Source of the DNA: an uncultured Candidatus Saccharibacteria bacterium
GTDB taxonomy: Bacteria; Patescibacteriota; Minisyncoccia; GWC2-36-17; WO2-46-25
Direction of reading: 5' to 3'
NCBI GenBank assembly: GCA_964359755.1
Contig: CAYHUB010000002.1
Location: 924 to 64,923, forward strand
Length of the DNA stretch: 64,000 bases
A program made the position numbers and the translations under genes. Positions 8,585-58,365 of the stretch are shown here, in pieces (the stretch's first letter is position 1; each line of letters begins with the position of its first letter). The notes beneath the pieces were generated by a model that was given only the letters and a program-made list of their open reading frames with translations, had not been told where the DNA came from and ran no database searches.

Positions 8585-8699
8585 AAGTCCTTGGCATAAA
8601 ATTTCTTAGAAATTTTATGTGAGACGGTAACAAGGGGAAATACGCGAAACATTATTTACTTTTATGACAATGATAATACTAAAATACGAACTTCTAACG
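8576..8699. repeat. Intergenic segment bracketed by 12-bp inverted repeat CCCGTTAGAAGT / ACTTCTAACGGG (second copy)
   Basis: cccgttagaagtcc at 8576-8589 contains the glyQS TAG stop. gaacttctaacggg at 8686-8699 abuts the ATG of the M16 peptidase. The interior holds a perfect 12-bp palindrome cataaaatttct/agaaattttatg. Confidence 0.6.
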
Positions 8700-8701
8700 G
8701 G

Positions 8702-16545: not shown

Positions 16546-16572
16546 AAAGAAAAAGATGGGACCAAAAGTTCC
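16546..16572. terminator. Bidirectional hairpin between holA and rpsT
   Basis: agatgggaccaaaagttccatct stem-loop flanked by A- and T-tracts, lying between the convergent genes. Confidence 0.5.
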
Positions 16573-16603
16573 ATCTTTTTCTTTATGGGTTTGCTGTGTA
16601 AAA

Positions 16604-19635: not shown

Positions 19636-19666
19636 TTGGGAGAGGCGCGTCTTGCTTGGTTGTGGG

Positions 19667-19780
19667 CAATCGCCCCCCACTCAATCATTTCTTTTATCTT
19701 AACGGAAGCGCAGCCCTTCATTAATTATCTTATAGATGGGCGTGAGTGGATTAAAGAAAGGATTGAGTGGGGGGCGATTG
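19667..19780 (+). repeat. Palindromic intergenic repeat element, copy A
   Basis: Perfect 20-bp outer IR caatcgccccccactcaatc / gattgagtggggggcgattg encloses the conserved core TTTATCTTAACGGAAGCGCAGCCCTTCA...GGGCGTGAGTGGATTAAAGAAAG. Confidence 0.8.
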
Positions 19781-19838
19781 CGTCTAAAGAGAACATAAGC
19801 TTATAATCAAAAACTTTTTAAATCTGCGCAACAAAAGG

Positions 19839-20421: not shown

Positions 20422-20450
20422 TTGACAACATGATAAATATGAAGTATAAT
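20422..20450 (+). promoter_or_regulatory. Consensus sigma70-type promoter TTGACA-N17-TATAAT
   Basis: ttgaca at 20422-20427 and tataat at 20445-20450 with an exact 17-nt spacer. AAAAGGAGG SD sits before the ATG at 20504. Confidence 0.7.
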
Positions 20451-20503: not shown

Positions 20504-20773
20504 ATGAATAAGAATTCTGGTTGGTTTAAGTTTTTCTTTAAAAATCTTTTTTTTCTGGTGGTGGGATTAGCGATGGGAGCGGCAATGACGAGTGCGCTTC
20601 TCTTCTTTTTCCCCCCTGATTTCTCAGAAAGAGAAATCAGGGGGGAGTGTAATAAGTGGCAAAACTGGGCGCAAGAAATACGAGCTGACATATTTTCTCC
20701 GTCAGCAGAAATGGTAAGACAATGCCGGAAGGTTGGCATAGAACTTACGGTAAAAAAAGGAGAAGAAGAGTAG
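20504..20773 (+). CDS. Small membrane protein (89 aa), hypothetical
   Basis: Consensus promoter plus strong SD, and one TM helix (LFFLVVGLAMGAAMTSALLFFF). A perfect 14-bp palindrome ccccctgatttctc/gagaaatcaggggg lies inside the CDS at 20612-20645. Confidence 0.55.
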   Translation: MNKNSGWFKFFFKNLFFLVVGLAMGAAMTSALLFFFPPDFSEREIRGECNKWQNWAQEIRADIFSPSAEMVRQCRKVGIELTVKKGEEE

Positions 20774-20789
20774 AAAAAATAGGTTTAAA

Positions 20790-20820
20790 AGAGGGGGCAT
20801 CAATGATGCCCCCTCTTTCC
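20790..20820. terminator. Bidirectional terminator between the small ORF and phoH2
   Basis: agagggggcatcaatgatgccccctct hairpin flanked by an A-tract upstream and TTCCTTTTTT downstream. Confidence 0.7.
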
Positions 20821-24483: not shown

Positions 24484-24576
24484 AGAATTGTAGAATATAG
24501 CATTATAGCTGTAATGAAAAGATAAGCTACCGCCGTAGTATTGTGATAAATGCACGCGAGTATTGGGCTTAAAAAA

Positions 24577-24602
24577 TAAAAGGATGCGTATTCGCATCCT
24601 TT
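24577..24602 (-). terminator. Terminator of the small 24618-24821 gene
   Basis: aaaaggatgcgtattcgcatcctttt hairpin. A T-tract follows in the minus sense. Confidence 0.55.
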
Positions 24603-24617
24603 TAAGTTTTTTGTAAT

Positions 24618-24994: not shown

Positions 24995-25750
24995 ATGAAT
25001 CAAGATCAGGTTTTATTAAATCTTATAGAAGAGTCGGGGCTCTCGCAGAAAGAATCCAAGGTGTATTTGGCCTTATTGGAGCTTGGGCAGGGAACTATTA
25101 ATGAAATTTCAAAAATAACAGGATTAAAAAGACCCATTATTTATGTTATTTTAGAAGGCCTATTTAAAAGAGGATATGCCAATGAAGTGCCGCATTGTAA
25201 AATAAATACATACCAGGCTATCGACCCCGCCGTTATATCGCTCAAGCTTCAAGCGGTGGCAAAAAATTTCTTTGATATGGTTCCGGTCATGAAAACGTTA
25301 TCTCACAAAAGCAATGTCCGCCCCGTCATATCTTATTATGATACAAAAGAGGGGATACTCAACGCTTACAATGAGGTAAATAATTATAGCGACGCTTTTT
25401 TTATCACGAGTTTATCAAGAATAGAAAATTTCTTTCCAAAAATTCTTACCGATTGGAAAAAATATTACAAAAAAAATATTATTAAATTAACGAGCAGAAA
25501 TTTGATTTCAGGTACGACGGAAGACATTGCGATCATAAAGGAATTTATGGAAATAACCGACAAGGTGCAGGGGAGAATAGTGCCGGAACTGAAAGATTAT
25601 AATGTCGACTTTGCTCTGTACGGTAATAAATTAAGCATCGCTTCTTTTAACAAAAATCCATTTTTAATCATCATCACATCCGAAGAAGTAGTTAAAACGA
25701 TCATGCCTATCATTGAGTTGGCATGGAACATGGGGAAAAGGATACCATAA
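24995..25750 (+). CDS. TrmB-family HTH transcriptional regulator
   Basis: N-terminal wHTH LSQKESKVYLALLELGQGTINEISKITGLKRPIIYVIL is typical of TrmB. The gene is markedly AT-rich compared with its neighbours. Confidence 0.6.
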   Translation: MNQDQVLLNLIEESGLSQKESKVYLALLELGQGTINEISKITGLKRPIIYVILEGLFKRGYANEVPHCKINTYQAIDPAVISLKLQAVAKNFFDMVPVMKTLSHKSNVRPVISYYDTKEGILNAYNEVNNYSDAFFITSLSRIENFFPKILTDWKKYYKKNIIKLTSRNLISGTTEDIAIIKEFMEITDKVQGRIVPELKDYNVDFALYGNKLSIASFNKNPFLIIITSEEVVKTIMPIIELAWNMGKRIP

Positions 25751-25870
25751 AAAAGCGTTTGAGAAAGAAGTGAAAGTGAGATATGATGGAAGTCGTGAAG
25801 TGTGAAATATGAAAACTATTTTTAGCGCATCCCTTCTGTTTTACGTTTCAAGATTCATGTTTCAAGCCTT

Positions 25871-26446
25871 ATGATCTCTTATCTTGAGGGAACAGCGATC
25901 GCGAAGAACGAAAAGAACGCAATAATCCTTGTGAACGGCGTCGGCTACAAGGTGTTTTTTTCCGGTGGAGATTTAAATACCATAGCACTCACCGGGGACA
26001 CCGTCAAAGCGTTTACCCATCTGCAAGTAAGGGAGGATGCGCTTGAATTATACGGCTTTTTAGACCGGTCGGCGCTTGAGCTTTTCGAGCTGTTCATTAC
26101 GATTTCGGGCATCGGGCCGAAGGTGGCCCTTGCGATCATTTCTACGGAAAGTCCAAGCGTGCTTGCGGGGGCAATCGCGCGCGAAGACGTGAAGTTTCTT
26201 ACCAAGGTGTCGGGCGTGGGTCTCAAAAGCGCGCAAAAGATCGTGCTTGAACTGCATGAAAAAATAGCGAAAGTGAGTTTTGCGATGCATGACGCGGGCG
26301 CATCGGCGGACGCGGATGCAATCGATGCGCTTGTGGCGCTCGGGTGGAGCGCACGCGATGCGAGAGAAGCGCTCAAAAATATTCCCAAAGAAATTGACCG
26401 GACCGATTTGCGGATCAAAGAGGCGTTGAAAAAATTAGGGAAGTAA
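25871..26446 (+). CDS. ruvA: Holliday junction DNA helicase RuvA
   Basis: ISYLEGT...VNGVGYKVFFS OB fold, then LFELFITISGIGPKVALAI HhH motifs and a C-terminal RuvB-binding domain. 191 aa. Confidence 0.9.
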   Translation: MISYLEGTAIAKNEKNAIILVNGVGYKVFFSGGDLNTIALTGDTVKAFTHLQVREDALELYGFLDRSALELFELFITISGIGPKVALAIISTESPSVLAGAIAREDVKFLTKVSGVGLKSAQKIVLELHEKIAKVSFAMHDAGASADADAIDALVALGWSARDAREALKNIPKEIDRTDLRIKEALKKLGK

Positions 26447-26476
26447 ATAGCCGTGGATTACGAAATGATATTTTTG

Positions 26477-26592
26477 TACTCTATCCTCTCTCCCAATTCT
26501 TTCTTTTATCTTAACGGAAGCGCAGCCCTTCATTAGTTTTTATATAAGGGCGTGAGAGGATTAAAGAAAGAATTGGGAGAGAGGATAGAGTA
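26477..26592 (+). repeat. Palindromic intergenic repeat element, copy B
   Basis: 23-bp perfect outer IR tactctatcctctctcccaattc / gaattgggagagaggatagagta around the conserved core TTCTTTCTTTTATCTTAACGGAAGCGCAGCCCTTCA...GGGCGTGAGAGGATTAAAGAAAG. Confidence 0.8.
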
Positions 26593-26610
26593 TGACAAGC
26601 GGATTGCTAT

Positions 26611-27672
26611 ATGGAATTTCTTTTTAATCCCGCGATAGCGCGCGAAGAATGGAATGAATTTATTGTCCGCCACAGCGGCAGTTTTTTGCAGTCGTTTGAA
26701 TGGTCCGGCTTTCAGGAAAAAGCAGGCAATACGGTCGCGCGCATCGTGATAAAAAAAGATGGCGTCATAGTGTTGTGTGCGAACGCAATTTTTCATACGC
26801 TTCCGTTTCGTAAAGCGTATTGGTATGTGCCGTATGGTCCGGTGATCGCAGAAACTGTACAAGAAAAAGAAAAAATAATCCGCTTCTTTCATGAGAAGTT
26901 TTCCCTCAGCGCAGGGAAAGAAGTGATTTTTATAAAAATTGAGCCGGAGGAGATGGAGGCGGGAAACATGTTTGCAGATATTGGAACGCAGAGCGCGGCA
27001 TCGCAACCGCAGGAAACGGTGATCATTGATTGCACACTTTCCGAAGAAGAGATGCTTTCGCAGATGAAACCGAAAACGCGCTATAACATTAAAATCGCAG
27101 AGCGGCACGGAGTAAAGATCATAAGTCCCGACGATCAAACAAAGCTTGATCCGGAGATCTTTCTCTCCTTGCTTTCCGCTACGGCGGCGCGGCATCGGTT
27201 TCGTGCGCATGACGGGCAGTATTACCGGACGATGCTTGAAACGCTTGTACCGCACGAAAAAGCGGCGATGAACAACGCATGTTTCGCGCGATTGTTTTTC
27301 GCGCAGCATGAGGGGGCAGTGATCGCTTCCGCGCTCGTGGTATTTTTCGGACGCCGCGCGACGTATCTGCACGGCGCTTCGGACGCCGCGCAGAAAAACG
27401 TTATGGCGCCCTATGCGCTACATTTTGAGATCATGAAATACGCGAAACAGGCGGGATATGCGGAATATGACCTGTGGGGAGTGGCGACCGAGCGGTCATC
27501 CGATGAAATAAAGAGGAAATGGGGAGGATTTTCTCGGTTTAAGCTCGGGTTTGGCGGCAACGTGGTTGAACGCCCCGGCGCATACGATTTCACGCTTCGC
27601 CCGCTATGGTATATTATATATAGAGGTGTGAAAAAAGCGTCACCTATTCGTTCATGGTTAAAAAGATCGTAA
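26611..27672 (+). CDS. FemAB-family peptidoglycan aminoacyl transferase (FemX/MurM-like)
   Basis: 353 aa, double-GNAT FemAB architecture. The C-terminal region WGVATE...KWGGFSRFKLGFGG is characteristic of the family. Confidence 0.65.
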   Translation: MEFLFNPAIAREEWNEFIVRHSGSFLQSFEWSGFQEKAGNTVARIVIKKDGVIVLCANAIFHTLPFRKAYWYVPYGPVIAETVQEKEKIIRFFHEKFSLSAGKEVIFIKIEPEEMEAGNMFADIGTQSAASQPQETVIIDCTLSEEEMLSQMKPKTRYNIKIAERHGVKIISPDDQTKLDPEIFLSLLSATAARHRFRAHDGQYYRTMLETLVPHEKAAMNNACFARLFFAQHEGAVIASALVVFFGRRATYLHGASDAAQKNVMAPYALHFEIMKYAKQAGYAEYDLWGVATERSSDEIKRKWGGFSRFKLGFGGNVVERPGAYDFTLRPLWYIIYRGVKKASPIRSWLKRS

Positions 27673-28994
27673 AAAAACTTACTCCCGGATTTATACTTTC
27701 GGCGTATCATCTTTCACTCGCGTATTGCGCCGCGCTGCGGTATTGGTTTCCTTCCGCATCAATGGTGGTGATCGGGGTAACAGGTACGAAGGGGAAGTCG
27801 AGCGTAGTATTTATGCTTGCCAAAATCCTTGAAGAGGCCGGTATAAAAGTCGCCGTGTCTTCTTCGTTGATGTTTAAGATCAACGAGAACGAATGGCTGA
27901 ACCCGTACCACATGACCATGGCGGGGAGGTTTAAGCTTCAGCAGTTTTTATATCAGGCAAAGAACGCGCGATGTACGCATGTGATCATTGAAACGACATC
28001 GGAAGGCATCAAACAGCATCGCCATCGGTTCATTCATTTCGACGTCGCGGTGTTTACCAATCTCACGCCGGAGCATATCGAGGCGCATGGCGGGTTTGAA
28101 AATTATAAAAAGGCGAAAGGAAAGCTTTTTGAAGCGCTCGCGCATGCGAAGAAAAAAACAATCAATGGGAATAGGATTGAAAAAATAGCCGTGGTAAATA
28201 CGGATAATGAGCACGGGCATTATTTCTTACAGTTTCCTGCCGATACAACATACGGATTCAGCGCGCAAGGAACGTGCGTGATGCCGCCGAGCGCGAATCA
28301 TACGTGCGTGTCGGCATCAGCGGTGGACGCGGGGTCCGAAGGGGTGAGTTTTGATGTGGAAACTACGAAATTTCGCATGCATTTGCTCGGGCAATTCAAC
28401 GTGGAAAACGCGCTGTGCGCCGCAGTGACGGCAAAAAGCCTCGGAGTAGCGTTTTCCGTTGCCGCTTCAGCTCTTGCAAAAATAGAAGAGATCCCGGGAA
28501 GGATGAAATTCATACGGGAAGGACAGAGGTTTACCGCGATCATTGATTTCGCGCATACGCCCAGTTCGTTTGAAGGCGTGTTTGCGGTGATGAGGCAGTT
28601 GAAAGATCCGCACGGGAGGATTATTGCGGTGTTTGGTTCCGCGGGCGGGGGAAGGGATAAATGGAAACGGCCGGAGCTTGGAAAGATTGCCGCGCGCGCC
28701 GCAGACCATATTATTCTTACCGCGGACGACCCGTATGAAGAAGACGTAGAGGAGATTTGCGCGGAGATTCAAAAAGGCATTGACAGTGAAGCATTTAAAG
28801 GAAAAGTGGAGGTTATTTCCAATAGGCGGGAAGCGATCAGAACCGCGCTGGGAATGGCGCGATGGAATGATATTGTTTTATTCTTAGGGAAAGGCACCGA
28901 ACAGACGCTTATGATCGGTACCGAAAGCGTTTCATGGAACGAAGAAAGCATCGTAATAGAAGAAATACGCAATATGCTCTATGACCGGAAATGA
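27654..28994 (+). CDS. Mur ligase family protein, MurE-like (short N-terminal domain)
   Basis: P-loop GVTGTKGKSS, DFAHTPSSFEG, and C-terminal ADHIILTADDPYEED, which resembles the MurE DNPR region. Only about 35 aa precede the P-loop. Confidence 0.65.
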   Translation: MVKKIVKKLTPGFILSAYHLSLAYCAALRYWFPSASMVVIGVTGTKGKSSVVFMLAKILEEAGIKVAVSSSLMFKINENEWLNPYHMTMAGRFKLQQFLYQAKNARCTHVIIETTSEGIKQHRHRFIHFDVAVFTNLTPEHIEAHGGFENYKKAKGKLFEALAHAKKKTINGNRIEKIAVVNTDNEHGHYFLQFPADTTYGFSAQGTCVMPPSANHTCVSASAVDAGSEGVSFDVETTKFRMHLLGQFNVENALCAAVTAKSLGVAFSVAASALAKIEEIPGRMKFIREGQRFTAIIDFAHTPSSFEGVFAVMRQLKDPHGRIIAVFGSAGGGRDKWKRPELGKIAARAADHIILTADDPYEEDVEEICAEIQKGIDSEAFKGKVEVISNRREAIRTALGMARWNDIVLFLGKGTEQTLMIGTESVSWNEESIVIEEIRNMLYDRK

Positions 28995-29535
28995 CGCAAA
29001 AGCGATAAAAACATTTTTGTTGTTGCTGGTGGTTCTCGGAGCAGTGATGCTGACGTTTTTTTATACTGTCCGGAAGGAGATGGTTGAGATCAAGCAGGTA
29101 ACGATGCCGCCATCCGCACAAAAAATACAGGCGATCGCATGGGAACAACTTCGTAACGTGAAGGACGATGCGAAAATAGAAGTACGCATGAATAATGCCC
29201 GCGTTATCGCCGAGGTGATGCGAAGCGATGCAAAGCGACAGCAAGGACTTTCAGGAAGAGACGGGCTTCCCGAGAGCGAAGGAATGGTATTTATATTCGA
29301 TCACGAAGAGGCATATTCATTTTGGAACAAAGACATGAAATTCCCCATTGATGTGGTGTGGATGTCAGGCGGTACGGTGGCGGGCGTGTCATCGCTTCCC
29401 GTATATGACGGCACAACACCTGCCATTATCACCGCTCCGTCGCCCGTTGACGTAGTGCTTGAAGTTCCTTTGGGGTTTGCAAGTACGCATGCAATTATGG
29501 TAGAAAATAATGTAGAAATATATGAAACCCAATAA
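28981..29535 (+). CDS. DUF192-family membrane-anchored protein
   Basis: TM anchor, then [18 protein letters not shown]...[15 protein letters not shown], which matches DUF192 (COG1430) as I recall it. Confidence 0.55.
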
Positions 29536-30103
29536 TATCATTTCATTGCTTGTGCTGGTTGCGGTCGCCGGCTCGGGCATTTATTATTTTATGTACCGCA
29601 CCACGCCTCCTCCTATGGAAAAAACAGGAAACATCGTCGTTATCGAAACAGATAAGGGAATTATAAAAGCGGAGCTTCGCGCAGACGCGGCGCCAAAAAC
29701 CGTCGCGAATTTTACCGGGCTTGCCGGGAAAAAGTTTTACGACGGACTTGTGTTTCACCGCGTGGTACCCGGTTTCGTGATCCAAGGAGGCGACCCGAAA
29801 GGAGACGGTACGGGGGGGTCGGGCATGAATGTCCCACTTGAAATCAAGTGCCAAGACGGCACTATGAACGAAGGCAAAGAGGTGGCGTGTCCGGTTGCGC
29901 TTCCGCATAGCGACGGAGCACTTGCCATGGCGCGCTCAAATGATCCTAATTCGGCGAGCTCGCAGTTTTATATCACGCTCGGCGAACAGTCGTTTTTGAA
30001 CGGCAAATACGCGGTGTTCGGATATGTAACGGAAGGAAAAGATATTGCGCGCCTCATAGAGCAGGGGGGTATGATCAAGCGGATATATCTGGAAAATAAA
30101 TGA
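29522..30103 (+). CDS. Cyclophilin-type peptidyl-prolyl cis-trans isomerase, membrane-anchored
   Basis: [15 protein letters not shown] and [16 protein letters not shown] motifs, with an N-terminal TM helix. Confidence 0.85.
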
Positions 30104-30843
30104 ATAACAAGGTTGAAAAAACGCTTTCAGTGACCGCGAATAAAGCAGATCTGATCCTGTGGTTTTTGTCGGTGCCTCTTTTACCGATGATCTTTGCGGA
30201 GTTTTTTACAACGCTTTCATCAGACGTAGAACTGTATTTCACGTCGTATTACTTCATTTTGTGGGCGGTGTTCACTGTTGAGTTTTCATCACGTCTTATT
30301 CTTTCAAAGAATAAAATAGGGTATTTGAAAGAAAATTGGATCGATGTGCTGGTGGTGTTCACGCCTGCATTTCGGACGTTTAAAGTGTTCCGGTTTATGC
30401 GCTTTCCCATCATGTTTCTTTCTGAAAGGGTCCTGCGCGCGTTCGGTTCGCTCGGAATCAATTTTTTGTACTACGTTATTTTCGTGACGGTAGTGACGCT
30501 TGTCGGCGCGGACCTCGCTCTTTTCTTCGAGCAGCAATCTCCTGTCTCGGAGATCAAGACATTCGCTGATGCGACATGGTGGGCGATCACGTTTCTTACC
30601 ACCGCCGGCAACAATAGTTATGTGGCGACCACAGGCGCGCGCGTAGTAGGCGTTGCGCTTATGACGATCGGGTTTGCCGTGTTCAGCATCCTCATTGCGA
30701 CCATTGTGTCATTTTTCATGAAAGAACACGCGATGAAGACGGCGCCGAACGAAGATGGTTTGCTTGAAGGTATTAAAGACGAACTTGGCATTGATGAGAT
30801 TATGGAGCGGCTTGAGAGGATAGAAAAAAAGCTCAATGAATAA
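30100..30843 (+). CDS. Voltage-sensor-containing 6TM cation channel-like protein
   Basis: S4-like [12 protein letters not shown] with R/K at every third position, then a pore-helix region [26 protein letters not shown] that lacks a canonical GYG filter. 247 aa. Confidence 0.55.
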
Positions 30844-30845
30844 CA

Positions 30846-32009
30846 GTGCAAAAAGTTTTACTTATCCATTATCACGAGATGTCGTTAAAAGGGGCAAATC
30901 GCCCCTTTTTTGAACGGATACTGCACAACAACATAAAAAAAGCGCTTCCGAAAGACGCGTATACGACGTGTGAAATGTGCTACGGGAGAATCATGGTCCG
31001 GCTGACGGAGCGCGCGGATGAAGAAGAGGTGCGCTCATGCATCCGCACGGTGTGCGGTATTGCCAATTTCTCGTTTGCATCTCTGCTTGCGTACGATTTT
31101 TCACTGTTGTGCGAGGAGGTGCTTGGCGCGCTTGCCGCGCGTGAATTTACGACATTCCGCGTGACCGCGCGGAGGGCGGATAAGCAGTTTCCGCTCAACT
31201 CACAAGAGATCAATGAACAGCTCGGCGCGCTCATCGTAACAAGACTGGGCAAGCGCGTGAAGCTGGAAAGCCCCGATCTCAACTGCCGCATTGAGATCGT
31301 CGGGAAAAACATTTTTTTCTATGTCGAAAAAGAAAAAGGGTGCGGCGGCCTGCCGGTAGGGTCTTCCGGAAAAGTACTCTCGCTTCTTTCTTCCGGCTTT
31401 GATTCTCCGGTGGCATCATGGAAAATGATGCGAAGGGGGTGCGAGGTCATATTCCTTCATTTTCACAGCTATCCGCACACATTGCAGGCGTCTCAGGAAA
31501 ATGTGCGGGAGATTGTGAAGGTTCTTACAAAATTCCAGCATCGGTCAATCTTGCTCTCTGTTCCTTTTTTGGAAATTCAAAAAACGATCTGTGCGGCTGA
31601 TATTCCCGAAGGGTTGCGGGTGGTGTTGTATCGGCGGTTTATGATGCGCATCGCCGAGCGTATTGCGGGCCAGGAAGAATGCAAGGCGCTTGTGACCGGC
31701 GACTCGCTCGGGCAAGTGGCATCCCAGACGCTTGAAAATATCGTAGTGATTTCTGCCGCAACGACCATGCCGATTCTCCGCCCGCTTATCGGGGAGAATA
31801 AAGATGATATTATTACGACCGCAACCGCTATCGGTACCGCTACGATATCGGCGCAGCCGTACGAAGATTGCTGCAGTCTTTTTGTGCCGGAACACCCGGA
31901 AACGCGGGCAAACATACAGGAGGTGGAACGATGCGAAACGAAATTGGAAATCGAAAAGCTTATCGCTGACGCGGTCGCGGGTATGACGCGCGAAGAAATA
32001 ATTGTATAA
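30846..32009 (+). CDS. thiI: tRNA 4-thiouridine synthase ThiI (THUMP + PP-loop)
   Basis: PP-loop LLSSGFDSP and an N-terminal THUMP region. GTG start. Confidence 0.8.
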   Translation: MQKVLLIHYHEMSLKGANRPFFERILHNNIKKALPKDAYTTCEMCYGRIMVRLTERADEEEVRSCIRTVCGIANFSFASLLAYDFSLLCEEVLGALAAREFTTFRVTARRADKQFPLNSQEINEQLGALIVTRLGKRVKLESPDLNCRIEIVGKNIFFYVEKEKGCGGLPVGSSGKVLSLLSSGFDSPVASWKMMRRGCEVIFLHFHSYPHTLQASQENVREIVKVLTKFQHRSILLSVPFLEIQKTICAADIPEGLRVVLYRRFMMRIAERIAGQEECKALVTGDSLGQVASQTLENIVVISAATTMPILRPLIGENKDDIITTATAIGTATISAQPYEDCCSLFVPEHPETRANIQEVERCETKLEIEKLIADAVAGMTREEIIV

Positions 32010-32015
32010 TATTTA

Positions 32016-32137
32016 TATTCTGTTTTGGCATGCCCCCACCCTCTTTTCTTTTTTTAATCCACTCACGCCCTTTATTTGTATAATAGTTATTGAGGGGCTG
32101 CGCTTCCGTTAAGATAAAAAAAAGAAAAGAGGGTGGG
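32016..32137 (-). repeat. Palindromic intergenic repeat element, copy C (inverted orientation)
   Basis: The reverse complement carries the core TTTTATCTTAACGGAAGCGCAGCCCCTCA...GGGCGTGAGTGGATTAAAAAAAG. Outer IR tggcatgcccccaccctcttttc / gaaaagagggtgggggcatgcca. Confidence 0.8.
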
Positions 32138-32161
32138 GGCATGCCACCGTAAGGTAAAAGA

Positions 32162-33556
32162 ATGATACGCGAATTCAAAAACAAAAAAGTGGTGATCATG
32201 GGGCTCGGGAGCTACGCACAGGGGAGCGGTTTTGCCGCCGCCGCTTTTTTTGCCAAGGCGGGATCAAGGGTGCTTGTCACCGATATGAAGCCCGCTTCTT
32301 TTTTCGCATCTGCGATAACAAAGCTCAAGAAATATCCCCATGTGCGCATGGTGTTTGGAAAACACCGTGAGCAGGATTTTATACAAGCGGACCTTATTAT
32401 TAAAAATCCGGATGTGCCCAAGAGTTCTCCGTATCTTCGCGTCGCGAAAGAATACGGCGTGCCGGTGTGGGATGACTGGACCGTGTTTTTGGCGATAAGC
32501 GACGCTATGATCGTCGGGGTGACCGGCTCAAAAGGGAAAAGCACCACGGCGGTGCTTATCAATGAGATGGTACGCCGGCAGTACCGCTCGCATCTGTGCG
32601 GTAATATCGGCGTGTCGCCGCTTGCGATATGGCAAAAGATACACAATGACGATGTGGTGGTGGCGGAACTTTCAAGCTTTGGCCTGCACGGGTTTGAGAC
32701 GTCGCGCATCAGCCCTCATGTCGCGGTGATCACCAATCTGTTTCCCGAGCATCTCAATAAATATAAAAATATCGGGGAGTATTATAAGGATAAAGAAATA
32801 ATTTTCAGATATCAGAAGAGCGATGATTGGTGCATTGCCAATAGAGATAATGCGGAAACCAAAAAACGCGTCGCACAAGCGAAGTCAACCGTGCTGTGGT
32901 TTTCAAAAAAACCGTTTCGCGGTGATGGCGCGTACATAAAAGATACATCAATTTTCTTTTCGCAGGGAACTGAAAAAACGCGCATATGCGCGGTTTCGGA
33001 TATTCAGCTTCTCGGCGCGCATAATCTCGAAAATGTTCTGGCGGCCGTCTGCGTTGCGATGTGTATGGGCGTGCCACCGAATGCCATACAAAAAACAATC
33101 AAAGAATTTCGCGGGGTTCCGGGGCGCATGGAATTGGTGAGGACGGTGAGGGGAGTTGCGTATTACAATGACACGACGGCAACCATGCCCGAAGCGGCGA
33201 TCGCGGCGCTTGATGTGCTCGCGCACAAGAATGTGATACTGCTTGCGGGCGGCGCCGATAAGAAGCTCAATTACCGCGAGCTTGCGCGCGCGATCAAAAA
33301 GCGCGCACCAAAGCTTGTGCTGTTTAAGGGTGCCGCGACGGAAAAACTTATGCAGGAGCTTGAGAAAATAAAGTACCATAAAATACTCGGCATCGTTACC
33401 GGTATGAAAGACGCGCTCTCCATCGCGCGCGCCGAGGCAAAAAGAGGAGATGTGGTGCTGTTGTCGCCGGGAGCGGCGAGCTTCGGCATTTTTAAGAACG
33501 AATTTGACCGCGGCGATCAATTTTGCGCGCTGGTGAGGAAACTTCCCTCACACTAA
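32162..33556 (+). CDS. murD: UDP-N-acetylmuramoylalanine--D-glutamate ligase
   Basis: N-terminal Rossmann VVIMGLGSYAQG, P-loop GVTGSKGKSTT and MurD-type C-terminal domain. 464 aa. Confidence 0.85.
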   Translation: MIREFKNKKVVIMGLGSYAQGSGFAAAAFFAKAGSRVLVTDMKPASFFASAITKLKKYPHVRMVFGKHREQDFIQADLIIKNPDVPKSSPYLRVAKEYGVPVWDDWTVFLAISDAMIVGVTGSKGKSTTAVLINEMVRRQYRSHLCGNIGVSPLAIWQKIHNDDVVVAELSSFGLHGFETSRISPHVAVITNLFPEHLNKYKNIGEYYKDKEIIFRYQKSDDWCIANRDNAETKKRVAQAKSTVLWFSKKPFRGDGAYIKDTSIFFSQGTEKTRICAVSDIQLLGAHNLENVLAAVCVAMCMGVPPNAIQKTIKEFRGVPGRMELVRTVRGVAYYNDTTATMPEAAIAALDVLAHKNVILLAGGADKKLNYRELARAIKKRAPKLVLFKGAATEKLMQELEKIKYHKILGIVTGMKDALSIARAEAKRGDVVLLSPGAASFGIFKNEFDRGDQFCALVRKLPSH

Positions 33557-35151
33557 AGCGATTTCACCATATAGGTGTCTTTGAGCGTATAGCCGAGTTT
33601 ACCGTAGTAGCCGCGCACGCCAGCACCCGCGATCACTGCCATTTTTTTCATCCCGAACTCTTTTTTTGCGATGTTTTCCGCTTCCGCGAGCAGTTTTTTT
33701 CCGAGTCCTTTATGTTGTTTTCCCCGTGAATGATTTTTTTGCCTGAGCAGAGGTACCACTTCGCCATACGTATGTATCTCGCGTATGAGCGCGGCGCCTT
33801 CGAGCGCGCCGAAAAGCGGCCGCGTGTCTGAAGGAGAGATACGGAGACGGAGGAGCGCGATAAGCTTATCGTTTTTAACGTCTTCGTAAGACAGGAAAAT
33901 TTCCTTGCCGCCCGAAGCATCATAATCCGTTCGCTTTAATTTTACATCGCGCGCTTGTGCGACGGTGTCTTTGATCTCTCTGCACCTGATACAGCGGCAC
34001 GCTATTCCTTGTTCCGCCATTTTTTTGTGAATGACCTGGCGCAGATTTGAAGCGGTGCTTCCCGCTGCGATGCTCGGCGCGGGAATATCGCGGATCACCC
34101 GCACGATACGGCAGTATTCCGGCACATATTGTTTTGCTCTGGTGATAATAGAAATAAGCTGGCGGTCGGTGTACGGGCGGTATAAGCCTTTTTGCCACAT
34201 GCGGTACAGTTTTGTATTTTTAACAACCATGCATGGATAGATCTTGAGCATATCGGGTTGAAAACGCGGGTCGGTAAAAAGCTTTTTGAACATCGCGACA
34301 TCTTTCGCGGGAGTAGAGCCCGGGAGGTTGGGCATCATATGATAATTGATCTTAAACCCCGCATTTTTGAGCAAGGCGGTCGCGTGCGCAACCGCATCGA
34401 TATGATGGCCGCGCTGGGAAATATCAAGAACGTCGTCATACACGCTTTGCACGCCAAGCTCCACGCGCGTGCAACCATAGTGGCGCATGCGTTTTATTTC
34501 GTCTTCGTTCACCCAATCGGGCCGTGTTTCAAGCGTAAGCCCGACGAGCTTATGCGTAGCGTGTCTGCGGTTGTATTCCTGGAGTGACGCAAGCGATGAT
34601 TTTGTTTTTTTGCCCCCGGAATTTTTTTCGTTCAATGCTTCATACAGCCGCGCGATGAATTGTTCTTGGAAGCGGTGGGGGATGGACGACCACGTCCCGC
34701 CGATGACGATAATTTCGATCTTGTCGGTCGCGTGCCCCTGCGCTTTAAGCGCCGCAAGACGGCTGGCGACCTGCCGGTAGGGGTCGAACTCGTTGGCGAT
34801 CGCGCGCATGACCGCGGGCTCGTTGGACAGATAGCTTTTGGGCATGCCGCGCTCGGTTGGGCAAAAGACGCATGCGCCCGGGCACGCGCCGTTGGGTGTC
34901 ATGACGGTGATTGCGGCAATACCCGAAAGCGTCCGCACTTTTCTTTTTACGATGATGCGCGCGAGCGGGGGATTCGGTTTGATTTTTTTTGCGTCGAGGA
35001 GTTTTCCGTATGCGGCAAAAAGCGCAATGTTTGATGCGAGGCCTTCGGTGCCGCCCGCGGCGTGCGCGCGTCTGATCGCCTCGAATGAGGCCTCATCGAG
35101 ATTTTTTTTACGAGACGCCTCAACGATTATTTTTTCAGCTGTTGTTGGCAT
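33553..35151 (-). CDS. elp3: ELP3-family radical-SAM/GNAT tRNA wobble-uridine modification enzyme
   Basis: GIAAITVMTPNGACPGACVFCPTERG radical-SAM cluster motif of the ELP3 type, plus a C-terminal GNAT region (KHKGLGKKLLAEAENIAKKEFG). 532 aa. Confidence 0.8.
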   Translation of the reverse strand: MPTTAEKIIVEASRKKNLDEASFEAIRRAHAAGGTEGLASNIALFAAYGKLLDAKKIKPNPPLARIIVKRKVRTLSGIAAITVMTPNGACPGACVFCPTERGMPKSYLSNEPAVMRAIANEFDPYRQVASRLAALKAQGHATDKIEIIVIGGTWSSIPHRFQEQFIARLYEALNEKNSGGKKTKSSLASLQEYNRRHATHKLVGLTLETRPDWVNEDEIKRMRHYGCTRVELGVQSVYDDVLDISQRGHHIDAVAHATALLKNAGFKINYHMMPNLPGSTPAKDVAMFKKLFTDPRFQPDMLKIYPCMVVKNTKLYRMWQKGLYRPYTDRQLISIITRAKQYVPEYCRIVRVIRDIPAPSIAAGSTASNLRQVIHKKMAEQGIACRCIRCREIKDTVAQARDVKLKRTDYDASGGKEIFLSYEDVKNDKLIALLRLRISPSDTRPLFGALEGAALIREIHTYGEVVPLLRQKNHSRGKQHKGLGKKLLAEAENIAKKEFGMKKMAVIAGAGVRGYYGKLGYTLKDTYMVKSL

Positions 35152-35177
35152 TTTAGGATTGATGATACGATGAAAGC

Positions 35178-35900
35178 ATGCACAAGCAGTATGCCAACTA
35201 TCTCATAGAAAAGACAAGAGCGGACTATGACCGCATCGCGTCTGATTTTGACCGGACGCGCGGGTATGTATGGAAAGAGCTGGAGCGGTTTGGAGAATAT
35301 ACGCGGGAAGGACAGAGGGTACTCGACTTCGGATGCGGGAACGGCCGCCTTTTTGAACTGTTCAAAGGAAAGAATATCGCGTATACGGGCATTGATCAGT
35401 CGGGAGGGCTGATTGCACATGCGCGTACGCGGCATGCGAAGGATATCGCGCAAGGAACCGCGCAGTTTATTGAAGCATCGGGCGACACCCTTCCATTTCC
35501 GGACGCATCGTTTGACTGCGTGTTTTCGATTGCCGCGCTTCATCATATTCCTTCTGAAGAAAAGAGAAAAGAATTGCTTCGTGAGTTTGCGCGCGTGATG
35601 AAGCCGGAGGGGCGGCTCATAATCACCGTGTGGAATTTATGGCAGAAAGGGTATCGCGGACTGATCGTGCGCGCAACGCTTAAAAAAATCATCGGGCGGT
35701 CGCAGCTTGATTTTTTTGATGTATTCGTGCCTTGGAAAGACAGCACAGGAGATGTGCAGGCACAGCGATACTATCATTGTTTTTCCTTGTTTTCGCTAAA
35801 ACGGCTTGTACGCCGCGCGGGGTTCCTGCTTTATGAGAGCGGGTATTTTGCGGTGAAAAAGGACAGGGTCAATATTTACGTAATCGCCGCAAAAGAGTAG
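35178..35900 (+). CDS. Class I SAM-dependent methyltransferase (type 11; Trm9-like by context)
   Basis: VLDFGCGNGRLFELF motif I and MKPEGRLIITVWN motif. Divergently arranged with elp3. Confidence 0.65.
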   Translation: MHKQYANYLIEKTRADYDRIASDFDRTRGYVWKELERFGEYTREGQRVLDFGCGNGRLFELFKGKNIAYTGIDQSGGLIAHARTRHAKDIAQGTAQFIEASGDTLPFPDASFDCVFSIAALHHIPSEEKRKELLREFARVMKPEGRLIITVWNLWQKGYRGLIVRATLKKIIGRSQLDFFDVFVPWKDSTGDVQAQRYYHCFSLFSLKRLVRRAGFLLYESGYFAVKKDRVNIYVIAAKE

Positions 35901-35915
35901 GATACGAATAATAGT

Positions 35916-36950
35916 ATGACAGCGCCTTCAAGAAATTCTATTGATATCACGTTTGCGTCCATTATGAAGGTGGCGGCCGTTGTGCTTGGGCTGGCGCTCA
36001 TGTATTCCGTAAAAGAGATCCTCGCCTTAGTGTTTCTCGCGATCATTATCGCATCCACTGTTGACCGGTGGGCGAGCTTTTTTGAGCGATACCACATCCC
36101 CCGCATGGGAGGCGTGGCGCTGGTGTATGTTGGGTTTGTCGCGCTTCTTGTCGCAGTGCTGTATTTTATTGTCCCGCCAATCCTTACGGAGGTGAAGCAG
36201 TTGGTGCTCTTTCTTCCTGATTATTATGATGTTGCGGCAAAACAGATCTTTCGTACTACGCGCGGCATTTCGCCCGATTACGCGCGAAGCATGCAGGAAT
36301 TCGCTACGGGGCTTGAAGCGCGCATTACCGGTGTAACGTCGGGCGCATTGTCCGCCGCCGTGGATGTGTTTGGCGGGGTGGTGGCGTTTGGCATGGTGAT
36401 CGTGACCTCGTTTTATCTCGCGATGCAACGCCGAGGCGTTGAGCATTTTTTACGGCTCGTGACGCCCAAAGCGCAGGAGGAATATGTTCTTGACGTGTGG
36501 CGGCGCGTGGAAATAAAGCTGGGGAAATGGCTCGAAGGCCAGCTTCTGCTCGGATGTATCGTGGGAGTCACCGTGTTTGTCGGGCTTTCACTGATCGGCG
36601 TGCCGTATGCACTGCTGCTTGCGCTTGTTGCGGGGATCTTTGAGATCATTCCGATCGCAGGACCGCTGTTTTCCGCGCTCGTCGGCGTTTCTGTTGCGTT
36701 CCTTGTTTCGCCGGTACTCGCGTTTCTTACGCTTCTTTTTTACGGCGCCCTGCAGCAGATCGAGAATCATGTTCTGGTCCCGTTATTTTTAAAAAAGATC
36801 ACAGGGCTTAATCCGGTGGTGGTCATCGTCGCACTGCTTGTCGGCGCAAAGCTCGGCGGCATCATGGGCATGCTTATTGCGGTGCCGCTTGCAACGATAG
36901 GAGGCGAGCTATTGGATGATCTTGCGAAGAAAAAAGCGGGATCAGTATAA
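35916..36950 (+). CDS. AI-2E family (UPF0118/PerM-like) transporter
   Basis: 344 aa with 7-8 TM segments. Conserved central region GKWLEGQLLLGCIVGV...IPIAGPLFSALVGV. Confidence 0.7.
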   Translation: MTAPSRNSIDITFASIMKVAAVVLGLALMYSVKEILALVFLAIIIASTVDRWASFFERYHIPRMGGVALVYVGFVALLVAVLYFIVPPILTEVKQLVLFLPDYYDVAAKQIFRTTRGISPDYARSMQEFATGLEARITGVTSGALSAAVDVFGGVVAFGMVIVTSFYLAMQRRGVEHFLRLVTPKAQEEYVLDVWRRVEIKLGKWLEGQLLLGCIVGVTVFVGLSLIGVPYALLLALVAGIFEIIPIAGPLFSALVGVSVAFLVSPVLAFLTLLFYGALQQIENHVLVPLFLKKITGLNPVVVIVALLVGAKLGGIMGMLIAVPLATIGGELLDDLAKKKAGSV

Positions 36951-37391
36951 GAGCAGGAAAAGAGAAGCGGCAACGACAAAGATTTCGGTCATAGCGCCAA
37001 GCCATAACGGCGGGCGGGTTCCTATGGGCGTAATGAGTGCGTGCCAGAAGGCATGAAACTGCATGTGGCGGCGAAGATATTTCCCGCGTGAAAATAAATA
37101 GATCGCCAAAAGACCGTCGGGGACAATGCCGAAAAACGCACCCCACACAATAAGCGCTTGTTCTGCGGAGTCAAAACGCTGGAGCGTAAAAAAGATAATG
37201 AAAAGCCCCGCGGCGATATCGGCCGTGATCTTGTATGCGGTTGCTTTTTTTGATGTCATGATGGCATACTCCCAGTGGGGAAGCGCATCAAGGAGATAGT
37301 GGAGTGCGACAGCGCCAAGCGCAAGAAGAACCGGTTGATGGAGAGAGGTTGCCAGCGCGGCACCCGCGAGCATATGGGGAGCAAGGATCAT
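36942..37391 (-). CDS. Hypothetical membrane protein
   Basis: 149 aa with 4 predicted TM helices and no recognisable motif. Confidence 0.4.
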   Translation of the reverse strand: MILAPHMLAGAALATSLHQPVLLALGAVALHYLLDALPHWEYAIMTSKKATAYKITADIAAGLFIIFFTLQRFDSAEQALIVWGAFFGIVPDGLLAIYLFSRGKYLRRHMQFHAFWHALITPIGTRPPLWLGAMTEIFVVAASLFLLLY

Positions 37392-37406
37392 AATTCAGAA
37401 TACATC

Positions 37407-38087
37407 ATGTCACATTTATTTATCGTAGCGACGCCGATAGGGAATTTGGAAGATATTTCTTTCCGCGCTGTGCGGATATTGCAGGAGGCTGATCTGATCC
37501 TCTGCGAAGATACGCGCGTGACAAAAAAACTGCTTGATCGGTATGCCATCAAAAAACCGCTTCAATCATATCATCAACACAGTAAGCTGGCAAAGACAGA
37601 ATACATCGTAGATATGCTTGCCTCGGGGAAAAACATGGCATTGGTTTCCGATGCGGGAACGCCGGGAATATCCGACCCGGGAGGGTTGCTTGTTGAAGCA
37701 GTCGTTAAACGATTGGGAGACGAAGTAACGATCGTTCCGATTCCCGGGGCGAATGCCGCGCTCGCCGCGCTCTCCGTGTCAGGGTTTCCCACGGACCGGT
37801 TTATATTTTTAGGATTTCCGCCGCATAAAAAAGGAAGGAAAACATTTTTTGAAGAAGTAGCGGCTCTACGCGAAACCGCGGTGTTGTACGAATCAAAACA
37901 CAGAATAGAAAAGGCGCTTACCGCGCTCGCCGAGCATGCGAAGGAGAGGAACATCGTGGTTGCGCGAGAACTCACCAAACAATTTGAAACGCTCTATCGC
38001 GGCACCCCGGGGGAGTGTCTTGCCGCGCTGAAAGCCGACGACATGCGCGGCGAATTTGTCGTAGTAATTGCACCAGTAAAAGCATGA
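37407..38087 (+). CDS. rsmI: 16S rRNA (cytidine1402-2'-O)-methyltransferase RsmI
   Basis: LFIVATPIGNLEDISFRAVRILQEADLILCEDTR is typical of RsmI (tetrapyrrole-methylase fold). Start set at MSHLF (37407), which avoids overlap with the upstream antisense gene. Confidence 0.8.
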   Translation: MSHLFIVATPIGNLEDISFRAVRILQEADLILCEDTRVTKKLLDRYAIKKPLQSYHQHSKLAKTEYIVDMLASGKNMALVSDAGTPGISDPGGLLVEAVVKRLGDEVTIVPIPGANAALAALSVSGFPTDRFIFLGFPPHKKGRKTFFEEVAALRETAVLYESKHRIEKALTALAEHAKERNIVVARELTKQFETLYRGTPGECLAALKADDMRGEFVVVIAPVKA

Positions 38088-38932
38088 ACGCATTTTTTCC
38101 TCTTATTGCGGCGGTCATATCGGCGGGCTCGCTTACCTTCGATAAAATGATCCTATCGGTTCACAATGTCGATTATCGCGCCTATCTTCGTTTCGGCTAT
38201 CCGGTGTATTTTGGCGCGATGGTCGTATTGTTTTTGATCTTTTCCCCGCCGCTTCCCCCCGAGCTTTTTGCTGGAGAACTGCTTGCGCTGTTTTTGGCGT
38301 CTGCGGCGGTGATGCTTGTGTTGTCGATCACCTATTATCGCGCGCTTGACGATGACGGGCTGGGTGAGGTGCAAACACTCGACCTCCTGCATTATATCCC
38401 CGTGGTACTGGTATCGTTTTTTTTATTTTCCGATGAGCGCAATATGGTTGTGGTTGCCGCCGCGCTTGTTGCAACGGGTGCCGTTTTTTGGTCGCATTGG
38501 GAACATCATCGGGTTGTGATTGCAAAGCGCACGCTTGAGTTTGTAGTATGGGCGGCGGTTGCCGCGCCGATCGAGGCGGTAATCGCAAAAACACTATTGT
38601 TGTATTGGCATCCTGTGGCATTTGCAACCATACGCTCCGGCGTGATCGCAGTCGCGATCTTTCTGTTGTTTTCGAGGCATGCGGTGCGGCTGCCGGCGCA
38701 GGCAATGAGGGCTTCTTTTCTCCCTGCAGCGCTTTCCGCAGTTGCCATTACGCTGTATTTTTACAGTTTCCAGCAGTTTGGGATTGTTTACACGGTACTG
38801 CTTTTTTCTATTCAGCCGTTGTTGGTATATGTGTCCGCGGTGCTTTTCTTAAAAGAGCAATTCCACTGGAAAAAGGCGATCGCATTTGTGATCGTGCTTT
38901 GCGCGATCACTGCGGCGCAGATTCTTTCATAG
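38084..38932 (+). CDS. DMT/EamA-like membrane protein
   Basis: About 10 TM helices. Start MNAFFPLIA at 38084 overlaps the rsmI stop as ATGA. Confidence 0.5.
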   Translation: MNAFFPLIAAVISAGSLTFDKMILSVHNVDYRAYLRFGYPVYFGAMVVLFLIFSPPLPPELFAGELLALFLASAAVMLVLSITYYRALDDDGLGEVQTLDLLHYIPVVLVSFFLFSDERNMVVVAAALVATGAVFWSHWEHHRVVIAKRTLEFVVWAAVAAPIEAVIAKTLLLYWHPVAFATIRSGVIAVAIFLLFSRHAVRLPAQAMRASFLPAALSAVAITLYFYSFQQFGIVYTVLLFSIQPLLVYVSAVLFLKEQFHWKKAIAFVIVLCAITAAQILS

Positions 38933-38995
38933 CGCTTGGGAGGCGTCTCGCGCGGTTGTTGTGAATAAGAGAGATATGATACTGTAAGGAGTATT

Positions 38996-42863: not shown

Positions 42864-42904
42864 AAAAATGCGGTGTGATTTCATAATGCAAGAAACAAGA
42901 ACTC

Positions 42905-56583: not shown

Positions 56584-56618
56584 TTGAAACGTGAAACGTG
56601 AAACGTGGAACATGAAAC
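56584..56618 (+). promoter_or_regulatory. Five tandem heptamers (TTGAAAC GTGAAAC GTGAAAC GTGGAAC ATGAAAC) at the start of the pilin-like array
   Basis: Read directly from the sequence. The array spans the 31-nt gap after the giant gene stop and reaches the first pilin-like gene's start codon. Confidence 0.4.
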
Positions 56619-57274: not shown

Positions 57275-57310
57275 GATCTCCTAAGCATAAGACTACCGCG
57301 CATATTTCTG

Positions 57311-57415
57311 CGCCACCCTCGCCTATAATTCTTTCTTTTATCTTAACGGAAGCGCAGCCCTTCAATAATTATTATATACATAAAGGGCGTGAGAGGATTA
57401 AAGAAGGAGGTGGGG
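57311..57415 (+). repeat. Palindromic intergenic repeat element, copy E
   Basis: The core is identical to copy B. The outer IR cgccaccctcgcc / ggaggtggggggtg is imperfect. Confidence 0.75.
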
Positions 57416-57470
57416 GGTGATGGCTGATACTACTTGAGCGGGAAACCAATCTCGTAATTCAAAATAACAT

Positions 57471-57713: not shown

Positions 57714-57840
57714 TCTCTGCAGGAGGATGCAGATTGCACGAAGCTATTTCGTTTTCCTCTGTGGATAGACTTTTTATCGCTTTTTTAGTATAGTAAAGAG
57801 AGTAAAAAAGGTCGAAAAATAACTAATTTTATTTCGTTTT

Positions 57841-58218: not shown

Positions 58219-58241
58219 TTCAATTTTATTCTCGAATACGC

Positions 58242-58275: not shown

Positions 58276-58365
58276 TGTGGATACCGTACGTATACTGTTT
58301 TCCATAAGTTTGATATAGTAAAGAGAGTAAAAAAGGTCGAAAAATAACTAATTTTATTTCGTTTT

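Follow-up and report, generated by a model that had tools for sequence, protein, structure and literature searches.

MITEs are small elements (under ~200-400 bp) that lack a transposase gene and consist of terminal inverted repeats around a core, bounded by a target duplication in the form of direct repeats (PMC3184786). ERIC sequences, imperfect palindromes of ~127 bp found in transcribed intergenic regions in either orientation, form long stem-loops and influence mRNA fate, and the Correia/NEMIS elements of Neisseria are intergenic, co-transcribed MITEs of ~100-160 bp whose hairpin transcripts affect expression (PMC3184786). REP and REPIN sequences are recognised as single strands, show signs of stem maintenance and persist for a long time at fixed loci (PMC3116915; PMC8266576); REPs require a GTAG motif at the hairpin foot and undergo HUH cleavage at CT (PMC8266576).

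How do the intergenic palindromes of a 64,000-nt stretch of Patescibacteria DNA (the window, to which unprefixed positions refer) compare with these systems? With ERIC they share palindromes in either orientation between genes, terminal inverted repeats, target duplications, long stem-loops and cross-genus conservation (PMC3184786). They differ from ERIC in host phylum and in sequence, which is unrelated; in the target duplication, which is 7 bp here and TA in ERIC; in a stem that is hypervariable with full compensation around a short, asymmetric and nearly invariant junction; and in terminal repeats that also carry alternative cargos. Like Correia/NEMIS they are small intergenic MITEs with terminal inverted repeats and a target duplication (PMC3184786), but the Neisseria elements differ in their 26-bp repeats, TA duplication, IHF sites and functional promoters; here no promoter signal was detected, and conservation centres on an internal three-way junction, not on the ends. 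Like REP/REPIN sequences, they are multicopy extragenic palindromes that form long hairpins, but they have terminal repeats and 7-bp duplications and lack GTAG. No description of this repeat family was found in Rfam or the searchable literature. We put at about 0.75 the probability that the palindromes are copies of a new Patescibacteria MITE family, whose cargo is a conserved three-way-junction hairpin constrained on one strand.

The first-pass annotation had listed five copies in the window, each between co-directional genes, and both statements hold. The exact 19-mer CTTAACGGAAGCGCAGCCC occurs at 19698(+), 26510(+), 32095-32113(-), 42782(+) and 57342(+), with a chance expectation of 0.01 (none of 100 shuffles attains five); the 3' half GGGCGTGAGNGGATTRAAG also occurs five times, paired with these five places; and a covariance model, built later, matches exactly the five copies in the window. 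The coordinates needed one correction: copy 3 lies at 32026-32146, not at 32016-32137, a shift of ~10 nt. Copies 1-4 fold as ~115-nt hairpins (-64 to -67 kcal/mol, z -8 to -11.5), and copy 5 is degenerate (-41 kcal/mol, z -3.2) because part of its 3' arm is gone. The outer inverted repeats, described as nearly perfect within each copy, are so in copies 1-4 (arms of 31-34 nt, 94-97% complementary), where the stems are perfect, and not in copy 5; the outer stems, listed as different in each copy, are not unrelated, many of them sharing a degenerate ...GYCGCCAYCRYCC... pattern. Each window copy keeps at most one degenerate terminal repeat, and all five cores are intact. The features are as follows.

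19666..19781, + strand: copy 1, in the pyrG-udg spacer, terminal repeats gone (19-mer, fold, covariance model)
26452..26465, + strand: copy 2 left terminal-repeat remnant (CGTGGATTACGAAA, against the consensus CTTTGAATTACGAAA), right partner gone
26477..26592, + strand: copy 2, the flagged element, between ruvA and femAB, a complete hairpin cargo (covariance model, 110 bits)
26477..26496, + strand: copy 2 variable 5' arm of the closing helix P1 (TACTCTATCCTCTCTCCCAA), pairs with 26573-26592
26497..26509, + strand: copy 2 inner 5' strand of P1/P2, conserved and rich in pyrimidines (TTCTTTCTTTTAT); its partner is 26558-26572, with a T·T mismatch that is conserved
26510..26528, + strand: copy 2 junction core, 5' half (CTTAACGGAAGCGCAGCCC), holding the minimal C-GGAA-G hairpin, P3 (CGC) and the start of P4 (GCCC) (alignment, covariation)
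26529..26547, + strand: copy 2 variable AT-rich apical region (copy comparison)
26548..26572, + strand: copy 2 core 3' half and inner stem (GGGCGTGAGAGGATTAAAGAAAGAA) (alignment, covariation)
26573..26592, + strand: copy 2 variable 3' arm of P1 (TTGGGAGAGAGGATAGAGTA) (fold, arm complementarity)
32026..32146, - strand: copy 3, between thiI and murD, with a minus-strand core
36945..36954, no strand: empty target site, filled in the relative L131
42752..42863, + strand: copy 4, between a small ORF and gyrA, upstream of gyrA, no variation among strains
42879..42892, + strand: copy 4 right terminal-repeat remnant (TTTCATAATGCAAG)
57313..57423, + strand: copy 5, decaying, between two T4SS-pilin-like genes, core whole and 3' arm partly missing (78.7 bits)
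57450..57463, + strand: copy 5 right terminal inverted repeat (TCTCGTAATTCAAA, one mismatch)

Pooling the hits in Patescibacteria genomes and metagenomes yields 149 pattern copies, of which 126 are distinct. The structure of the cargo emerges from an alignment that takes the core as its anchor and so was not fitted to the stems. The 43 proposed pairs are formed in 89.5% of cells, as against ~50% when the register is slid, and double-sided changes fill 302 cells versus 90 in shuffles, an abundance of the compensatory changes that had been proposed as a check; ~17 arm positions show all four Watson-Crick pair types each. The closing helix measures 26-33 bp (mode 30), its outer ~17 bp being free in sequence, and leads to a conserved junction with the 5' strand CTTAAC-GGAA-GCGCAGCCC and the 3' strand GGGCGUGAGNGGAUU, above which the apical hairpin varies. 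What looks like an internal loop is a three-way junction with a minimal GNRA-capped arm, because in one variant (L029:3954-4075) the C-GGAA-G is replaced by a 16-nt hairpin; there GCCC/GGGC has also become GTCC/GGAC, and across the copies the second P4 pair covaries (C-G 96, U-A 18, U·G 10, C·A 1). Other altered-core variants exist at L028:1205-1318 and L004:2421-2580. A subfamily (L004, L024, L140 and L165) carries a ~85-nt two-hairpin insert exactly between P1 and P2, which turns the junction into a four-way one. Discrete internal insertions are also carried by some ERIC copies, a further likeness.

Strong covariation, a conserved helix length and optional hairpin insertions at junctions, which structured RNAs have, are what one would expect of a non-mobile family of structured RNA genes or cis-regulatory RNA motifs, that is, of ancient paralogs under selection. 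The distribution of the family offers such a reading one more point in its favour. The exact 19-mer is found in 30 stretches of species-representative genomes, all of them Patescibacteria, which bears out the CPR host proposed at first pass and its expectation that the core would be found beyond the window; the hosts are several Ca. Azambacteria MAGs and other CPR bins. JACRAK01 alone accounts for 11 stretches, and this related MAG has at least 12 copies by the exact 19-mer, so that the projected dozens of copies per genome are plausible. A looser pattern adds 109 metagenome stretches, chiefly from groundwater. Two subfamilies can be told apart: an 'Azambacteria' type with the inner stem TTCTTTCTTTTAT/ATTAAAGAAAGAA and an AT-rich apical region of 19-26 nt, and a 'short' type with the inner stem TTTCTGAAACC/GGGTTGAAGAAA and a short GC apical hairpin. 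The two types belong to hosts that diverged deeply (RuvA 32-38% identical), and the junction is conserved across these hosts, the cross-lineage conservation of the core being partly an ascertainment effect of pattern-based searching.

Rfam 15 at gathering thresholds gave no match in the window and only tRNAs at 12 other loci; a permissive scan of copy 2 returned generic miRNA-precursor hairpins far below threshold. The curated RNA families, including self-cleaving ribozymes, 6S and SRP, were rejected, as no element scores at the gathering threshold, and comparison by eye with twister, hammerhead, pistol, the k-turn, SRP domain IV, the 23S GTPase-associated region and group II domain 5 yielded short word similarities only. 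A tRNA/tmRNA search of the window found none. A viral or plasmid origin was likewise discarded: the 15 matches to a 16-mer in viral contigs are chance matches, none of which fits the covariance model.

The ends of the element lie farther out than the ~110 bp first assigned to it, an extent that holds for the palindrome and not for complete copies, which go on through spacers to terminal repeats of 15 bp. At 160-190 bp, the full unit reads, in order, 7-bp duplication, 15-bp CTTTGAATTACGAAA, a spacer of ~10-20 nt, the cargo (92-145 bp, the ~100-120-nt palindrome of the first pass), a spacer of ~5-20 nt, TTTCGTAATTCAAAG and the same 7 bp; it folds as a rod of 160-190 nt. The terminal inverted repeats CTTTGAATTACGAAA ... 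TTTCGTAATTCAAAG occur in both subfamilies, 5-20 nt outside the hairpin. Of 104 copies, 23 have the left repeat in the correct orientation, 28 the right and 14 both; wrong-orientation controls gave 1 and 0. Only ~35% of copies have a recognisable terminal repeat, and because none of the five window copies keeps both, their membership in the family rests on the shared cargo. Of the 20 complete copies, none of which is in the window, 10 are bounded by direct repeats of 6 bp or more, usually 7 bp, that abut the unit in a consistent register (e.g., TCATAAA, TAAAATA, TAAACGG, TATATTT and TATCTTA); 2000 shuffled pairings average 0.40 and never exceed 3. The unit thus inserts with a staggered cut that gives a target duplication. 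The same repeats enclose other interiors (L131:2136-2257, L091, L073 and L078), and L147:481-513 is a bare pair of them; the ends are therefore a vehicle that takes alternative cargo.

Small size, absence of a transposase gene, terminal repeats, target duplication and dispersed copies with presence/absence differences are all features of a MITE. No ORF lies inside the unit, and the neighbours of 126 copies are unrelated housekeeping genes, with no partner protein adjoining the elements; in ~1.2 Mb of loci there is neither a repeat pair that encloses an ORF, as an autonomous parent with the same ends would, nor a recurrent transposase-like protein.

Could the elements instead be single-stranded DNA hairpins of the REPIN/REP kind, or IS200/IS605 derivatives (PATE-like), moved by an HUH tyrosine transposase (RAYT/TnpA) for which the junction is the recognition hairpin? 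They are extragenic and multicopy, adjacent copies cluster in one locus (L028), constraint falls on one strand (see below) and G·T wobble is tolerated in single-stranded DNA hairpins; the outer motif, moreover, contains TTAC and TCAA tetranucleotides, which we take to sit at IS608-like positions. HUH single-strand transposition, however, is not known to give target duplications or terminal inverted repeats, and we know of no REPs that have either; here there are 7-bp duplications and 15-bp terminal inverted repeats. The hairpin foot has no conserved GTAG (columns 1-4 of alignment A1 are without consensus), nor do the flanks; no Y1 transposase or RAYT gene was seen among the neighbours of the 126 copies; and core orientation shows no bias against a GC-skew proxy. 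With target duplications, terminal repeats and the missing GTAG against it, this explanation fails, and we hold it to be quite improbable.

A second single-strand system was also compared. Integron attC sites are imperfect palindromes of ~60-140 bp between co-directional genes; their structure, not their sequence, is conserved, and they act as a folded single strand in a strand-selective manner. Their core sites, R''/R' = RYYYAAC/GTTRRRY, lie at the base, and the sites are located 3' of gene cassettes in an array. The elements described here have no RYYYAAC/GTTRRRY, their hairpin base being variable or carrying CTTTGAATTACGAAA; they neighbour core genes (pyrG, ruvA, gyrA, murD, rpsR), not cassettes; and they are randomly oriented and have target duplications. 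Identity with attC was rejected on the absent core sites and on the neighbours.

The mobile unit can be followed between relatives. L131 is a close relative, with 90-96% nucleotide identity over window positions 25495-39083. Where the window is uninterrupted, at 36945-36954, L131 holds a sibling of 125 nt, which has the same terminal repeats in perfect form and a TAACAA duplication and differs in its interior; conversely, the segment 32012-32161, which holds window copy 3, is absent from L131, in which the thiI stop lies 3 nt from the murD start, a difference that insertion in the window and deletion in L131 fit equally. At a greater distance than in the L131 comparison, the rpsR junction holds a whole hairpin in L018 and is 10 nt long in L012. 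The unit is, then, gained or lost between close relatives. It also disperses together with its arms: short-type copies with near-identical arms are found in ~11 unrelated gene contexts. These filled and empty sites and near-identical units in unrelated contexts, together with the terminal repeats and 7-bp duplications, support the mobile-element alternative of the first-pass annotation. Its suggestion that the variable outer stems arose from insertion is not supported, as the arms travel with the element and diverge later. In the comparison of strains that it proposed, copies 1, 2 and 4 are invariant (no flips, no presence/absence), and for the neighbour of copy 5 no record turned up; the close relative L131 lacks copy 3. 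Short-read contigs break inside the shared core.

Terminal repeats with target duplications, filled versus empty sites in close relatives and identical units in unrelated contexts are also what the RNA-gene reading does not accommodate, and it further has to contend with orientation that is unbiased relative to genes, no consistent promoter or terminator, no association with a gene class and no Rfam match. It keeps, on the other side, two points that are set out below, a strand-specific G·U excess that extends to antisense copies and orthologous sites that persist with compensated changes. Because of the transposon hallmarks, a pure RNA-gene family fails as an explanation and is unlikely. We also tried and rejected insertion into pre-existing terminator hairpins, with the arms as target: there is no hairpin at empty sites, and the arms move together with the element. 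No 'empty' palindromic targets were found from abutting half-motifs. The arms give no matching signal with their own flanks or insertion site, and a guide function is therefore unsupported.

The MITE does not only come and go; over longer times it flips in place, through recombination between its own inverted repeats. The whole unit, spacers included, is flipped in L002/L102 versus L023. At the copy 1 site, L120 has the same arms with the interior flipped (flanks ~95% identical), and JACRAK01 (L004) has a different long-stem element. The core is flipped relative to the 85-nt insert in L140/L169 and L165. At a finer scale, apical hairpins exist as reverse-complement pairs (CGCAAAGCG/CGCTTTGCG and others), loops flip between AAA and TTT among copies, the perfect-palindrome tip CTCCGCTCGCGAGCGGAG is common to at least 8 copies with unrelated arms, and L151 has a templated reverse-complement insertion. 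Copies thus swap modules, both tips and the 85-nt two-hairpin insert; the tip flips, the palindromic tips and the L151 insertion are DNA-level signatures of recombination or template switching, as expected of palindromes.

Are the elements, then, invertible DNA switches (invertons), in which a recombinase flips the interior and so changes the expression of a neighbouring gene? Flips of the interior or the whole unit at orthologous sites, in three comparisons, and the AAA/TTT loop flips would fit. Near-identical strains and assemblies, however, are uniform in orientation at copies 1, 2 and 4, there is no internal promoter and no adjacent invertase, and any long inverted repeat is expected to flip passively. 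For want of population heterogeneity the inverton explanation fails, and we give it hardly any credence.

What sets the cargo apart from an ordinary passenger is that its pairing is strand-specific. Of the pairs in the closing helices, 2485 are Watson-Crick, 86 G·U and 22 A·C, with 43 of other kinds. The excess of G·U over A·C (p=4e-10) is not compositional, since G lies on either arm (47 and 39), and copies lying antisense to their two neighbours still show it (25:4). When orthologs are compared, nearly every arm substitution is compensated, with compensated to single changes of 8:0 for copy 2 and its L004 ortholog, 6:1 for L001/L135, 6:0 for L008/L133 and 6:0 for L098/L015; copy 2 has orthologs in both L131 and L004, the latter with an additional 85-nt insert. 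Such strand-specific pairing shows that the core strand matters in a single-stranded form. The first-pass annotation had offered selection for RNA structure as its other explanation. The structural part of that claim is upheld by the covariation, the strand-specific G·U excess and the compensated changes; a constraint on RNA in particular is not supported, given that the elements take no preferred orientation with respect to transcription and show no evident promoter, and single-stranded DNA is also a possible form.

Relative to co-directional genes the core points the same way in 30 cases and the opposite way in 38 (p=0.40); relative to local GC skew, a proxy for replication direction, the split is 41:33, and no replication-strand bias is seen by this proxy. 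A σ70-like promoter or a hairpin-plus-T terminator is not consistently present at the window copies; a perfect consensus promoter exists in the same genome at 20422. A pathway-specific riboswitch or cis-regulatory leader was rejected on the unrelated housekeeping neighbours and the 30:38 split. The elements are always intergenic, at a median of ~38 nt from each neighbour.

This position, a strong hairpin in either orientation and the terminator-like hairpins that long perfect palindromes provide elsewhere in the same genome would all suit host-evolved, factor-dependent terminators or insulators, in which the core is a protein-binding site for termination or processing and mobility is incidental. 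The missing U-tract tells against them: in agreement with the first pass, which had noted that the copies are not classical terminators, the terminator scan picks out none of the five as a hairpin with a T-run and their 3' flanks have no T-runs, and an intrinsic terminator was rejected on these grounds. A bidirectional hairpin, moreover, needs neither an asymmetric core nor strand-specific pairing, 10 of 90 typed sites lie between divergent genes, and the transposon hallmarks are there. The terminator explanation fails because the U-tract is missing, and we regard it as very unlikely.

For the MITE we favour, the sequence comparisons suggest the following course of events. The unit would be mobilised in trans by a putative DDE-type transposase that recognises the terminal repeats; an enzyme of this type is proposed because HUH single-strand transposases are not known to make staggered-cut duplications. 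After insertion the terminal repeats would decay, as they have in all five window copies, while the cargo would be kept, constrained to fold on the core-bearing strand. The constraint is most plausibly that of a transcribed hairpin RNA which, as in ERIC and Correia, would act from within surrounding transcripts: a conserved factor might recognise the junction, and the hairpin might thereby alter the processing or stability of those transcripts. An RNA reading gets no support from the random orientation or from the promoter and terminator scans, and the DNA-level signatures (tips, loop flips and L151) weigh against it. The constraint could also act on the single-stranded DNA form of the core strand, and arm-to-arm templated correction at the DNA level probably helps to keep the stems perfect.

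Is the cargo, beyond this, a previously undescribed functional structured nucleic acid of Patescibacteria, a ~110-nt rod whose junction, with its C-GGAA-G mini-hairpin, binds a putative conserved factor of the cell or encoded by an element, made as RNA from the core strand whatever the context, spread by the MITE and since domesticated? We entertain this only tentatively; if true, it would be a new RNA class whose genes multiply by transposition. The cargo is odd for a selfish repeat, with a short asymmetric junction conserved between hosts that have just ~35% RuvA identity, a helix of fixed length, and stems that evolve strand-specifically and with full compensation. The genomes of CPR/Patescibacteria are tiny, and to our knowledge their non-coding content has been little studied; here they are seen to contain a MITE system that is active or was so recently and whose cargo is modular. 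Its elements break short-read assemblies predictably and fill a sizeable share of intergenic regions that are very short. With the covariance model and the terminal-repeat consensus, the elements can be annotated and the transposase searched for. If the junction is a recognition module for a protein or an RNA, it would offer a handle on a CPR-specific process and an example of structured RNA or DNA that disperses by transposition.

The spacer between pyrG and udg that carries copy 1 in the window has an orthologous counterpart in the MAG JACRAK01 (locus L004; the L-numbered loci come from Patescibacteria genomes and metagenomes, with coordinates counted within the locus). This site is occupied by a long-stem, multi-branch element (L004:2421-2580) with 28-bp arms (CCTCGCGCCCTTTTCTTTATTTTTTACC / GGTAAAAAATAAAGAAAAGGGCGCGGGG). 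Because this element differs from copy 1, the orthologous site holds different elements in two related genomes. Its interior contains GACGAAGCGCAGGCC, which is reminiscent of the core of the studied family.

The 15-bp terminal repeats that bound complete family members are not confined to hairpin cargo; they, or motifs resembling them, recur in the following settings:

L131:2136-2257, L091:3293-3411, L073 near position 2158 and L078:2934-3092: sibling MITEs with the same terminal repeats and other interiors
L147:481-513: a bare terminal-repeat pair, about 5 nt apart
L010:1700-1765, L085:4229-4295, L130:249-315 and L132:1751-1817: a small hairpin, CCCCCACATAAATATTTATGTGGGGG
L117:3160, L125:7144 and L169:678, among other sites: orphan copies of the right-repeat motif (TTTTGTAATTCAAAATG...)

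Sibling MITEs and hairpin-cargo elements have their left ~30 nt in common, namely the terminal repeat plus ACCNCATCTTYTT. The small hairpin is flanked by reiterated ATTCATAATTC motifs, which resemble the terminal repeat. The orphan motifs directly adjoin start codons and have no hairpin in their vicinity; they may be all that is left of decayed elements, or may point to co-option of the repeat in 5' leaders.

In the window itself, the first codons of murD (window 32162-32182), ATGATACGCGAATTCAAAAAC, read TTTGAATTCGCG on the opposite strand and resemble the terminal repeat. This stretch immediately adjoins copy 3 and is found also in L131, the close relative in which the copy 3 site is empty; it is thus host sequence, and its resemblance to the repeat may be a coincidence or may reflect a target preference. 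Copy 5 has the following surroundings:

window 49951-56580: gene for a cysteine-rich, repetitive surface-type protein of 2209 aa
window 56591-58218: several small T4SS/TrbC-pilin-like genes that follow it, among which copy 5 is located

At L029:7140-7458, the inverted repeat around a family copy runs for >100 bp on each side and reaches the contig end; this extension may be an assembly fold-back, not real sequence. Two copies from one MAG (L012:8-118 and L017:7849-7959), both at contig ends, have near-identical arms and flanks; their apical hairpins are wholly unlike (CACCCCTTTCGCGAAAGGGGTG vs. AGCACATAACTTGTTATGTGCT). The pair represents either paralogs or two haplotypes of a single locus that broke the assembly.

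The window also contains other palindromes and a promoter:

974-1074 and 8575-8703: second intergenic hairpin family, arms (A)CCCGTTAGAAGT(CTTA) / (TAAG)ACTTCTAACGGG(T)
62960-63120: perfect 18-nt inverted arms, AGAGCCTATCCCAATAGG / CCTATTGGGATAGGCTCT
16546-16584, 20610-20646, 20788-20818, 24571-24610, 58235-58276 and 59664-59697: plain palindromes, nearly perfect, whose centres measure 1-5 nt
20422-20450: promoter that matches the σ70 consensus perfectly (TTGACA and TATAAT, 17 nt apart)

The second hairpin family, which has no sequence kinship to the studied one, has conserved outer arms that enclose 65 and 101 nt; the 18-nt arms enclose a further near-palindrome (63008-63073). Several plain palindromes have A-run/T-run flanks, e.g., AAAGAGGGGGCATCA.TGATGCCCCCTCTTT between convergent genes, and as a group they look like the bidirectional intrinsic terminators of this genome. 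The perfect match to the σ70 consensus shows that canonical promoters are in use in this CPR genome.
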